A stretch of DNA of 64,000 nt from a virus (IMGVR_UViG_2875713109_000001), one strand, 5' to 3'; shown: positions 38,077 to 40,235, numbered from the stretch's first letter. The notes: generated from the letters alone by a model not told the origin. Translations and numbers: made by a program.

Positions 38077-38093
38077 ATTGCTCTAATAATTCC
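38077..38093 (+). promoter_or_regulatory. C1 operator-like site
   Basis: attgctctaataattcc immediately after GT-like gene stop. Confidence 0.6.
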
Positions 38094-38101
38094 ATATTTT
38101 T

Positions 38102-38131
38102 AAAACGTGATGTACACTCATCACGTTTTTT
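38102..38131. terminator. bidirectional intrinsic terminator
   Basis: Perfect 11-bp stem aaaacgtgatg/catcacgtttt with 6-nt loop, A-run before and T-run after. Confidence 0.6.
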
Positions 38132-38142
38132 ATTAGAGCAAT
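38126..38142 (-). promoter_or_regulatory. C1 operator-like site (inverted orientation)
   Basis: tttttattagagcaat, reverse complement of operator motif. Confidence 0.6.
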
Positions 38143-38156
38143 CCAAAAGGTGCACT

Positions 38157-38375
38157 ATGTGGCCATTCCGACGGAAATATCACTACTGGCTGATCGCCTT
38201 TGTTACGCCGACCGGCGGTATCAGGCATGTCATCACCAGGTATCGCAACAAGAGACTCACCTTAGCCAGAATTTTACAGGCTGCCATAGGTGAGGGACTG
38301 GATACAAATTGCGTAGTCCTTCCTCCTTCATACTTAGGAAAAATGACCGAAGCACAAGCTAATACGGAACTTTGA
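38157..38375 (+). CDS. hypothetical small protein (72 aa)
   Basis: First ORF after operator pair; weak AAGG SD. Confidence 0.3.
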   Translation: MWPFRRKYHYWLIAFVTPTGGIRHVITRYRNKRLTLARILQAAIGEGLDTNCVVLPPSYLGKMTEAQANTEL

Positions 38376-38376
38376 A

Positions 38377-39639
38377 ATGAGCACTTCAGCACAAAACCAA
38401 TCAATCGAAAATGTATCTATCCCTGATGTCCTGAATGCCGGTATCCCGGCCATTATCCAGAACATCCGGGCCGCGCAACGCCGCGTTAGTTGTGATGACC
38501 TCACAGCACGTTTTTTTGATAATGCGGTTCAGTCAGCGGAGATGCTTCACGCACAGCTTATTGATGTTTATAACGCAGAAGCTGATAGCCATAACTCCCT
38601 GGTAGATGCAGCTGAAAATATGCAGTTGGATCTCGGTCTGAAGGGTAAAGAAATTGAAGAGCTTCAGCTGCAAATTGAACATTTGAAACGCCAGCAACAG
38701 GACGCGATCGACGATGCGACGCATGACGCCAACCAGCGTGCTGATAATGCCGAACGTATAAGCATTGAGCTGGAAACAAAACTCAATGAAATGACCGCGA
38801 TGGTTGAACTGCGGAACTCACAGATTTCAACGCTAAAATCTCAATATAAAGAGATCATGAAACTTGATCCTTTTAACCTTGAGAAACGCTATAACAAAGC
38901 TAAAAGCGAGCGACAGGAACTGCGTAAGCAGGTCGCCGACCTTAACCAACAGCTCAAAAAAACTATTAAAGATGCAAGCGAAGCGCGCGTGGCATTTGCT
39001 AATAAAAAAGCAGAGGTTACCGCGCTGGTTAATGAGAATGCCAAATTTGCGACGCTCAAGAAGGAAATGTATGGCATTACTGAGCGCCGTTTCCCTGCAA
39101 GAAAACTTCATCCGACGTTAGGGCAAATCTCCTTCTTCCCGCGCCTCCTGGCTTATGGGATCTCATCGCCTAAAGAGTTCAATAACGAGCGTCCTTATAT
39201 CGTTTCTAAGCTGGACTTTGCTTATCAGTTCTGCTGCGACATGGGCTATGCCATTGATATCCGGATCAACGAATGGTTGATGCCAAACTTCCAGCCGTTG
39301 GCCATTTTCCGCGAGTTCCAGCCGGAAGGTTGGGTAGAGTTCTTCCATGAATTGATCTGTAAAGAGATGGAAAGCCGCCGCCCGGAACTGGTCCGTCGAG
39401 TTGAGTGGGCGCAAGAGGTTATGTTGGCAGAGGCAGAGCTGCCGTTCGAACCGGAATTCATTGATGATCTGGCAACTAAAGGGCTGCATACCCTGTTTGA
39501 TGTGGTTACCCGCCGTCATGAGCAGTTGGTTGTCGAATTGGGTTTAGAGGAAACTGCGGCAAGAAGACTTCTCGATGTTTGCTATGCACGTAGCGATGCA
39601 TGGGAAAAAGAGAACGGCGGCACTATTTACGTTCGCTGA
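38377..39639 (+). CDS. coiled-coil protein (420 aa) with C-terminal globular domain
   Basis: N-terminal about 230 aa heptad-rich (LQ.EHLKRQQQD..., LRKQVADLNQQLKK); distinct C-terminal domain; no known motif recognised. Confidence 0.5.
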   Translation: MSTSAQNQSIENVSIPDVLNAGIPAIIQNIRAAQRRVSCDDLTARFFDNAVQSAEMLHAQLIDVYNAEADSHNSLVDAAENMQLDLGLKGKEIEELQLQIEHLKRQQQDAIDDATHDANQRADNAERISIELETKLNEMTAMVELRNSQISTLKSQYKEIMKLDPFNLEKRYNKAKSERQELRKQVADLNQQLKKTIKDASEARVAFANKKAEVTALVNENAKFATLKKEMYGITERRFPARKLHPTLGQISFFPRLLAYGISSPKEFNNERPYIVSKLDFAYQFCCDMGYAIDIRINEWLMPNFQPLAIFREFQPEGWVEFFHELICKEMESRRPELVRRVEWAQEVMLAEAELPFEPEFIDDLATKGLHTLFDVVTRRHEQLVVELGLEETAARRLLDVCYARSDAWEKENGGTIYVR

Positions 39640-39658
39640 TAGTTACAGTGTCACTTTT

Positions 39659-39693
39659 AATGCTGGTGGAGTGCGTCCCACCAGCATTTTTTT
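39659..39693 (+). terminator. intrinsic terminator
   Basis: aatgctggtgg-agtgcgtc-ccaccagcatt then TTTTT; stem contains Chi (GCTGGTGG) on both strands. Confidence 0.6.
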
Positions 39694-39712
39694 CGTCCAA
39701 TGAGGAGGGCAT

Positions 39713-40219
39713 TTGAGTATTTTCAATAAACACGCACACCAGGAACGTCCGTATATCGTCATAGTAGATATTGATGGGACGATATCGGAGGCAACGGAAG
39801 ACAGACTGCATTTACTTCCACCACCTGGCAAAGGTGCATTAACAGAGCACTGGAACGAGTTTAACCTTGCCTGTGACACTGATGCTCCCATCACTCCAGT
39901 TATTGATATGGTGCGCCAGTTGTCCAGCATTTACACGCTCTGGTTTGTAACCGGGCGCTGTGAGATAGCCAGGGATAAAACACGAGCTTGGTTGCGTAAG
40001 CACGTAACAAATGGGGCTGAGCCTTTGCTATCTATGCGTCCTGCCACCGATGACAGAAATGACGGCCCTGCAAAGATTGATCTCCTGAAGAAAATTGGTC
40101 TAAGTAAAATTGCGTTCGCGCTGGAAGATAAGATTGAAGTGGCGCGTGTTTTCAGGAGTCACGGTGTGCTTACGTTAATGGTCAGGGAGTATGAAAACGC
40201 GCTTCTCCATCAACAATAA
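39713..40219 (+). CDS. HAD-superfamily phosphatase-like protein
   Basis: Motif I DIDGT near N-terminus (IVIVDIDGTISEA), later T and DD motifs; 168 aa. Confidence 0.5.
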   Translation: MSIFNKHAHQERPYIVIVDIDGTISEATEDRLHLLPPPGKGALTEHWNEFNLACDTDAPITPVIDMVRQLSSIYTLWFVTGRCEIARDKTRAWLRKHVTNGAEPLLSMRPATDDRNDGPAKIDLLKKIGLSKIAFALEDKIEVARVFRSHGVLTLMVREYENALLHQQ

Positions 40220-40235
40220 TTGCTCTAATAAATAT
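40219..40235 (+). promoter_or_regulatory. C1 operator-like site
   Basis: attgctctaataaatat overlapping HAD-like gene stop. Confidence 0.6.

Follow-up and report, generated by a model that had tools for sequence, protein, structure and literature searches.

Positions 38,077 to 40,235 of a 64,000-nucleotide viral sequence (IMGVR_UViG_2875713109_000001; the whole stretch is called the window below) had been described in an earlier reading of the DNA, hereafter the original prediction, as an operator-flanked early operon encoding a 420-amino-acid coiled-coil protein and a HAD-like phosphatase. Comparison with phage records identifies this interval, at sequence level, as the pmgR-pmgS-pap transcription unit of a P1/P7-type phage-plasmid, predicted to be repressed by C1 and already annotated. 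A megablast search with 38000-40300 returned 19 phage records, all of them P1-type (P1, P7, RCS47, SJ46, JL22 and others), at 97.5-98.7% identity over the full length, and P1, P7 and RCS47 were 98.0-98.7% identical to the window across the whole unit. In the P1 record (AF234172), the interval runs exactly from OpmgRa (formerly Op86a) to OpmgT (formerly Op88) and carries the annotated features PpmgR, OpmgRb (Op86b), pmgR, pmgS and pap, while the corresponding genes of P7 (AF503408) are named shtA, shtB and pap. The locus, its genes and its operators are thus not new, being named in the P1 genome annotation, and in both records all features had been annotated before, except the two hairpins and the Chi sites. 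What we add are refinements at the level of annotation and one testable hypothesis, not a new kind of system.

The P1 counterpart, Op86a/b-pmgR-pmgS-pap-Op88 (AF234172, nt 82152-84309), shares genes, gene order, operators and hairpins with the window at 98% DNA identity overall, and the P7 counterpart, Op(sht)-shtA-shtB-pap-Op(hea), agrees in the same respects. PmgS is 99.3% and Pap up to 97.6% identical to the P1/P7 proteins, with scattered substitutions only and one 1-base indel between pmgS and pap, and the segment 38077-38142, which holds both operators and the intervening hairpin, matches P1 and P7 base for base. The small open reading frame (ORF), the 420-residue protein and the DIDGT phosphatase gene of the original prediction were recovered as ORFs of 72, 420 and 168 amino acids (Table 1).

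Table 1 Features of the pmgR-pmgS-pap unit, with positions counted from the first nucleotide of the window
Feature	Position	Strand	Remarks
C1 operator Op86a (OpmgRa)	38077-38093	+	3 mismatches; protein_bind site for 'phage repressor C1' in P1 and P7
Predicted sigma-70 promoter PpmgR	38078-38106	+	-35 TTGCTC, 17-bp spacer, -10 TAAAAC; transferred from the P1 annotation onto identical sequence
Hairpin	38102-38129		perfect 11-bp stem AAAACGTGATG / CATCACGTTTT, 6-nt loop, then T-run
C1 operator Op86b (OpmgRb)	38126-38142	-	3 mismatches; annotated in P1 and P7; in opposite orientation to Op86a; overlaps the T-run of the hairpin
pmgR (P7 shtA), 72 amino acids	38157-38375	+	ORF; P1 annotation; phrog_3177
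pmgS (P7 shtB), 420 amino acids	38377-39639	+	ORF; P1/P7 annotation
Intrinsic-terminator-like hairpin after pmgS	39659-39688	+	11-bp stem, 6 G-C pairs, then 7 T; -18.6 kcal/mol
pap, 168 amino acids	39713-40219	+	ORF; TTG start behind GAGGAGG; carries DIDGT; PF25109, phrog_415
C1 operator Op88 (OpmgT / P7 Op(hea))	40219-40235	+	1 mismatch; annotated in P1 and P7; part of the following transcription unit; overlaps the pap stop codon

Operators, promoter and hairpins

Scanning of the whole window for the 17-bp C1 operator consensus ATTGCTCTAATAAATTT, allowing up to 3 mismatches, gave 15 matches against 0.4 expected by chance, and the inverted pair proposed for the start of the locus as well as the further operator at its end were found at 38077 (+), 38126 (-) and 40219 (+). 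At 38077, the asymmetric 17-bp operator overlaps the predicted sigma-70 promoter: the -35 hexamer of PpmgR (38078-38083) lies inside Op86a and its -10 hexamer (38101-38106) overlaps the 5' arm of the hairpin. PpmgR was not called in a stricter consensus promoter scan. Occupancy of Op86a/b and Op88 by C1, and repression through them, are suggested by the P1/P7 annotation and by identity to P1, and C1 operators also stand before other units of the window. These observations support pmgR-pmgS-pap as a C1-operator-bracketed, sigma-70-driven early unit, and the early, C1-controlled expression assumed in the original prediction was borne out to this extent.

A divergent P1-like contig (L017), whose PmgS is 53% identical, has the gene order ppp-pmgQ-pmgR-pmgS-(one extra gene)-pap and carries a 2-mismatch operator copy at the position of Op86a, a degenerate inverted Op86b copy (4 mismatches by our own count) and, directly after pap, the counterpart of Op88. 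Between the operator halves, at the corresponding position, lies a hairpin of different sequence (-17.7 kcal/mol). Because L017 keeps the layout though its sequence has changed, the comparison argues that the arrangement of operators and hairpin may be functional.

The hairpin of the window at 38102-38129 reaches -13.4 kcal/mol on either strand (z = -5.7 and -4.8 against shuffled sequence). It had been taken for a perfect bidirectional terminator; the stem is indeed perfect, but bidirectionality is only partly apt, with 6 T after the stem on the + strand and only 4 T on the - strand, 4 of 11 pairs being G-C, and a consensus terminator scan did not call it. We therefore regard it as a weaker terminator candidate, and as weaker still in the leftward direction. 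In contrast, the hairpin behind pmgS (39659-39688), with its stem-loop and U-run, is a good candidate for a rho-independent terminator. It contains Chi (GCTGGTGG), as predicted, and does so in its stem arms on both strands, at 39662-39669 (+) and 39678-39685 (-). Chi occurs at 37 sites in the window (26 on the + and 11 on the - strand) where 1.9 were expected, and its presence in the pmgS terminator is thus a genome-wide property and not a special feature of this locus or operon. The start of pap lies 25 nt downstream of the terminator, and because a promoter scan found no promoter-like site in this gap, pap is presumably expressed by read-through.

From this arrangement, we propose that in the lysogen C1 would occupy the two inverted 17-bp operators bracketing PpmgR, with the -35 element inside Op86a and Op86b just downstream, and that upon inactivation of C1 the host RNA polymerase (RNAP) would transcribe pmgR-pmgS-pap. 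A PpmgR transcript starting about 7 nt past the -10 element would begin within the hairpin loop and lack the stem, whereas a transcript derived from pmgQ would form it. Because only transcripts from pmgQ could form the stem, we read the hairpin as an insulator, which would halt read-through from the upstream ppp-pmgQ unit and leave pmgR-pmgS reliant on their own C1-controlled promoter. The Chi-bearing terminator, for its part, would attenuate transcription into pap.

Just downstream of Op88, a strong leftward terminator-like hairpin (40268-40290, - strand; 10-bp stem, 6 G-C pairs, U-run, -18.1 kcal/mol) was observed among genes that all run rightward, and it may block antisense transcription from the right. 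Between Op88 and the next gene, a strongly hydrophobic ORF of 28 codons (40318-40404, + strand; MNTAFKIIMAAIYFWLFSITFGGIVAHG) follows a good AGGAG ribosome-binding site; no coding sequence is annotated at this ORF in the P1 and P7 records (AF234172, AF503408).

PmgS and its relatives

AlphaFold modelling of the whole PmgS (predicted local distance difference test, pLDDT, 75) placed long helices at residues 41-160 and 168-232, and the model of residues 226-420 was confident (pLDDT 91.9, predicted template modelling score 0.86), in agreement with the coiled coil and extra C-terminal region of the original prediction. The protein can be divided into conserved N-terminal helices, a coiled coil (about residues 41-232), a region without fold match (about 235-345) and a C-terminal domain (about 350-412) in which two helix-hairpin-helix (HhH) motifs are packed as a five-helix bundle, referred to as (HhH)2. 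Word-indexed homologue searches recovered only P1-like proteins and one 27%-identical relative with an HHH_5 match when started from PmgS, and almost only P1-like proteins when started from a broad family alignment. An exhaustive profile search gave 119 cluster representatives, of which 83 scored below E 1e-10; most are 370-470 amino acids long. Sequence searches against the PDB returned coiled-coil noise only, a Foldseek search of viral predicted structures with the C-terminal half gave nothing significant, and homology to SMC or Lamassu proteins was rejected, as PADLOC and NCBIfam likewise returned coiled-coil noise only, with matches to the arms of SMC, Rad50 and LmuB far below their cutoffs.

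In the family alignment, four parts could be told apart: the N-terminal segment (R-R-V-x-x-DDL) is conserved, the coiled coil varies but keeps an 'L-D-P' break, the following block (E-W-L-x-P / H-P-x-L-x-x-R-x-x-W-A) is again conserved, and the C-terminus carries the motif L-x-D-V...K-G-I-G-x-K-x-A. No Asp, Glu or His residue is invariant in this alignment, which argues against catalysis by PmgS. In a Pfam scan of the family, PF14520 (HHH_5) matched in 12 of 36 and PF03118 (RNA_pol_A_CTD) in 10 of 36 cases; the window PmgS itself gave no HhH Pfam match and reads ELGLEE where its relatives read KGIGxK. Through these two families, PmgS relatives are comparable to the (HhH)2 domains of the RNAP alpha C-terminal domain (alpha-CTD), the NusA acidic repeats and the N-terminal domain of Rad51/RadA/RAD51C. 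Unlike in those systems, the domain of PmgS is joined to a coiled coil of about 190 residues and a domain without known fold, no recombinase or polymerase core is present, and in P1 the second hairpin is degenerate and the domain acidic. For P1 PmgS, protein binding of the kind suggested by the NusA acidic repeats appears as plausible as DNA binding.

Comparison of gene neighbourhoods separated two pairings. In D6 and three D6-like contigs (L009, L010, L021), a PmgR homologue (28-37% identity) lies directly upstream of a PmgS homologue, as it does in L017, and in L021 the pair is followed by lpa-pacA-pacB; pap was found in none of D6, L009, L010 and L021. In smaller temperate phages with PmgS relatives, no recognisable PmgR homologue was detected, and in phiARM81mr and L011 the small ORFs that precede the PmgS homologues were not recognisably PmgR-like. 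The PmgR-PmgS pairing therefore appears stable in the P1/D6 lineage, whereas conservation of the PmgS-Pap pairing, by which the original prediction was to be judged, seems to hold in close P1 relatives (L017) and fails in D6-like and other PmgS-bearing phages. The wider surroundings consist of PDDEXK exonuclease, RecT, PmgS-like gene and integrase in two IMG/VR prophages, of ExoVIII, RecT, integrase, PmgS-like gene and Dam in phiARM81mr (in these orders), of a DNA methyltransferase after the PmgS-like gene in the Vibrio phages douglas 12A4 and 1F273_PE002, and of a methyltransferase before it in Aeromonas phage ST4. None of the PmgS homologues examined was located in a head or tail module. Because the pmgS deletion is viable, as described below, and these neighbourhoods, with RecE/RecT, orphan DNA methyltransferases, integrase and lpa-pacAB, are non-structural, we moved PmgS from morphogenesis to early DNA transactions. 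PmgS would then be a dispensable, non-enzymatic and probably dimeric long coiled coil ending in an (HhH)2 domain of the alpha-CTD/Rad51 N-terminal type, acting as a DNA-binding (or RNAP/NusA-type protein-binding) accessory factor.

In two E. coli contigs (L015/L016, 5001-6443; GCA_040344215.1), PmgS is called as a 480-amino-acid fusion with a DNA-cytosine-methylase fragment, located directly after an RdgC gene and still followed by pap. This 'DNA cytosine methyltransferase-PmgS' fusion (P0002) was rejected as a clue to function, as it belongs to a rearranged IS91-associated plasmid segment.

The phosphatase Pap and its relatives

Pap matched PF25109 (HAD_PNKP) with 45.3 bits against a gathering cutoff of 27.6 (E 1.3e-11), and its family profile retrieved the T4 Pnkp phosphatase domain (5UJ0, 1LTQ; E ~1e-10) and Capnocytophaga Pnkp1 (4XRP; E 5e-12) from the PDB. 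Alignment with ten homologues revealed D19, D21, T23, R31, T80, R82, D113, R115, D117, K121 and D139 as invariant, and HAD motifs I-IV (D19/D21/T23, T80-G-R82, K121, E138-D139) as invariant or nearly so. The Pap motifs DxDGT, (S/T)GR, DxRKDxxxK and (E/D)D align to DVDGT, SGR, DTRKDDVVK and DD of T4 Pnkp, and the family-specific Arg and Asp residues are presumably equivalent to R176, R213 and D254 of T4, as numbered in the mutagenesis work of the Shuman laboratory. The HAD phosphatase of the original prediction is thus recovered, and its sequence places Pap in the 3'-phosphatase family of T4 Pnkp, as a stand-alone HAD enzyme with all catalytic residues present.

With 168 amino acids, Pap corresponds to the phosphatase domain only and has no N-terminal P-loop 5'-kinase. 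While fold family and motifs are common to Pap, T4 Pnkp/PseT and Capnocytophaga Pnkp1, Pap differs from T4 Pnkp in lacking the kinase domain and in not standing beside an RNA ligase, and identity between them is low, at profile level only. A split kinase partner in P1 was considered and rejected: tblastn of the 64-kb window with the P-loop kinases that neighbour the Pap relatives of K1ind1 and aalborv gave no match, and those partners are deoxynucleoside monophosphate (dNMP) kinases. Because Pap has no kinase domain, the label '3'-phosphatase, 5'-polynucleotide kinase' is, judged from the sequence, an over-annotation.

The relatives of Pap are numerous, with tblastn matches in 1165 phage records, and three examples examined were stand-alone proteins of 158-213 amino acids. 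The phrog_415 phosphatases annotated as 'polynucleotide kinase' in T1-like phages, Webervirus, Kagunavirus and Krischvirus are 31-41% identical to Pap over the full length, similar in size and likewise devoid of a kinase domain. These relatives reside in virulent phages beside dNMP kinase, SbcD-like exonuclease or nrdB, whereas Pap lies in a repressor-controlled unit with PmgR and PmgS. In K1ind1, the neighbours of the Pap homologue are an SbcD-like exonuclease (phrog_704) and a dNMP kinase (phrog_139); in a T1-like phage a dNMP kinase is nearby, and in Krischvirus nrdB adjoins. The Pap family thus sits in DNA and nucleotide-metabolism neighbourhoods. We further observed that the genes called 'polynucleotide kinase' or 'kinase-phosphatase' in Kagunavirus, T1-like phages and Krischvirus (L003, K1ind1, 1365-3531; L004, aalborv) are phosphatase-only, and that the P-loop protein beside them is a dNMP kinase (phrog_139) and not a polynucleotide kinase.

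Our literature search found no enzymology of Pap and nothing relevant on stand-alone Pnkp-type phosphatases in defence contexts. Our best guess is that Pap takes the 3'-phosphate off DNA or RNA ends or off 3'-(d)NMPs, perhaps acting on 2',3'-cyclic phosphates as well, and that its role would be clean-up and salvage in nucleic-acid metabolism; the substrates suggested originally, nucleotides or DNA ends, were a fair guess for a member of the Pnkp 3'-phosphatase family.

Published genetics and competing readings

In the collection of 29 in-frame single-gene deletions made in P1 by Gonzales et al. 2022 (PMC9024508), ΔpmgR yielded <10^2 plaque-forming units (PFU)/ml and lysates with tails and incomplete heads, resembling the proheads and tails of the pacA packaging control, and supplying pmgR in trans restored plaque formation. 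Deletion and complementation thus establish that P1 needs PmgR to obtain heads that are complete and filled, and so to make virions. ΔpmgS and Δpap, in contrast, gave infectious phage with normal plating and 'normal restriction' on EcoA, EcoB and EcoK hosts (PMC9024508 Table S3), which makes pmgS and pap dispensable accessory genes and leaves pmgR as the only gene of the unit needed for virions. In the dCas12a CRISPR interference (CRISPRi) screen of Piya et al. 2023 (PMC10695390), pmgR, pmgS and pap were all scored non-essential, pmgR being one of five known essential genes 'missed', which the paper lists without a specific explanation. As dCas12a roadblocks are polar on downstream genes (PMC10695390), a block at pmgR should silence pmgS and pap as well. 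Failure of the roadblock is a simple explanation for the conflict between the lethal deletion and the harmless CRISPRi, as the screen overlooked four further essential genes. A P1vir RNA-seq preprint provided no usable timing for pmgR-pmgS-pap.

For the P1/P7 pmgR-pmgS-pap unit, we consider it reasonably probable that it is regulated as proposed above and that its three products, with the roles described for each, do not form one machine. Several points weigh against this account. The database names ('PmgS-like head morphogenesis', 'sheath contraction', 'prohead scaffolding') point elsewhere, although they derive from map position only. The activities proposed for PmgS and Pap are read from sequence and models. 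In P1 PmgS, the G-h-G consensus is no longer present in the second HhH hairpin (ELGLEE for KGIGEK) and the (HhH)2 domain is net acidic by our residue count, which makes DNA binding by the P1 protein uncertain, and residues ~235-345 have no structural match in the PDB or BFVD, so that a function could be hidden there. The terminator or insulator role of the 38102-38129 hairpin is likewise a proposal, weakened by the lack of a U-run in the L017 hairpin. Finally, the polar CRISPRi block at pmgR was harmless (efficiency of plating ~0.9; PMC10695390), though the in-frame deletion is lethal.

The original prediction had gone further and derived from C1 control an immediate-early cassette for anti-defence or host takeover. 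In such a cassette, PmgS would neutralise a host factor and Pap would destroy a defence signal or repair nucleic-acid damage inflicted by a defence. This idea, which we regard as unlikely, draws on a C1-controlled unit transcribed by the host polymerase, on the dispensability of pmgS and pap in laboratory hosts, as is usual for accessory counter-defence genes, and on surrounding 'pmg' genes that look like accessory enzymes (Ser/Thr phosphatase, glycosyltransferase-like protein). In addition, the PrrC anticodon nuclease is counteracted by T4 Pnkp, among characterised proteins the one most closely related to Pap. The step from C1 control to anti-defence fails, however, because C1 operators also precede other units and the first gene of the operon, the essential pmgR, serves virion production. 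Relief of restriction is not supported by the normal restriction of ΔpmgS and Δpap, which covers type I systems only, and a PADLOC scan gave no family match beyond coiled-coil noise. Pap also lacks a kinase, and no homologue of the P-loop (dNMP) kinases that adjoin Pap relatives elsewhere was found in the 64-kb window, in which RNA ligase was not searched for. Overall, the observation behind the original prediction was confirmed and its interpretation partly supported.

Returning to the genetics, we also considered that PmgR and PmgS work on phage DNA as a pair, before heads are filled or while this happens, with PmgR essential only for controlling or antagonising PmgS. Such antagonism would reconcile the lethal ΔpmgR with harmless joint silencing of pmgR-pmgS-pap, but some PmgS homologues have no PmgR partner at all, which speaks against PmgR as a strict antidote, and we hold this hypothesis to be distinctly unlikely.

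More doubtful still is a morphogenetic operon in which PmgR, PmgS and perhaps Pap would take part in head or tail assembly. The need of complete virions for PmgR (PMC9024508) speaks for it, as do the names in P1, P7, D6 and PHROG annotations (P7 ShtB 'sheath contraction'; D6 'prohead scaffolding protein') and the scaffold-like long coiled coil, for which the Phage_scaffold match was weak and non-significant (E 0.78). For PmgS and Pap, however, this reading is largely refuted by the normal plaques of ΔpmgS and Δpap (PMC9024508, PMC10695390); pmgS is absent from the main text of the virion-proteome paper (PMC9024508), PmgS homologues occur in siphovirus-size prophages beside RecT, integrase and methyltransferase genes and not beside structural ones, PmgS ends in an (HhH)2 module for binding nucleic acid or protein, and Pap is a Pnkp-type phosphatase. 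With a viable deletion, a non-essential CRISPRi score and a non-structural homologue context, PmgS does not qualify as a structural or morphogenetic protein, and we do not think that it is a head, sheath or scaffold protein.

Very improbable, finally, is an RNA 3'-end-healing pair of Pap and Ppp, the lambda-type metallophosphoesterase encoded two genes upstream. Such a pair would act on tRNAs cleaved by anticodon nucleases, opening their 2',3'-cyclic phosphates and taking off the 3'-phosphates. Pap is indeed a member of the Pnkp phosphatase family, Ppp weakly matches the bacterial Pnkp phosphoesterase module (TIGR04075, E 8e-10), lambda phosphatase reportedly has 2',3'-cyclic phosphodiesterase activity and a metallophosphoesterase gene also adjoins the Pap homologue of K1ind1, but Ppp and Pap lie in different transcription units, the K1ind1 enzyme is the SbcD-like DNA exonuclease with a dNMP kinase as the other neighbour (a DNA/nucleotide context), the window holds no homologue of those P-loop (dNMP) kinases (RNA ligase not having been searched for), and Pap would oppose the host ligase RtcB, which requires a 3'-phosphate.

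The flanks of the unit offered further observations. Beyond Op88, the window is of P7 type and not of P1 type: 40414-41506 encodes a 195-amino-acid Upf86.8-like protein where P1 has the 309-amino-acid PmgT, followed by an Ead/Ea22-like protein (PF13935, E 7e-38). On this comparison, the window is a P1/P7 mosaic. Upstream (34775-38075), several 'putative morphogenetic' genes resemble enzymes, including a 192-amino-acid protein with a weak VRR-NUC match, the pmgO and pmgP equivalents with weak MptE-like matches, Ppp as a PrpA/PrpB-type Ser/Thr phosphatase and the pmgQ equivalent in a PHROG glycosyltransferase family. All of these upstream genes are non-essential (PMC10695390), and together with the enzyme-like matches this makes 'pmg' a probable misnomer.

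P1 is a workhorse phage whose phage-plasmid relatives spread resistance genes; still, about half of the P1 genes, those of the pmgR-pmgS-pap unit included, are named by map position or weak homology, and names such as 'putative morphogenetic function', 'acid phosphatase' and 'polynucleotide kinase' have been copied into hundreds of genomes. The results on PmgS, Pap and the PmgR-PmgS pairing correct existing annotations of this kind. If PmgR were indeed to control PmgS, early phage DNA-transaction proteins would gain a new and widespread family in PmgS, and pmgR would have to be struck from the genes for head completion.

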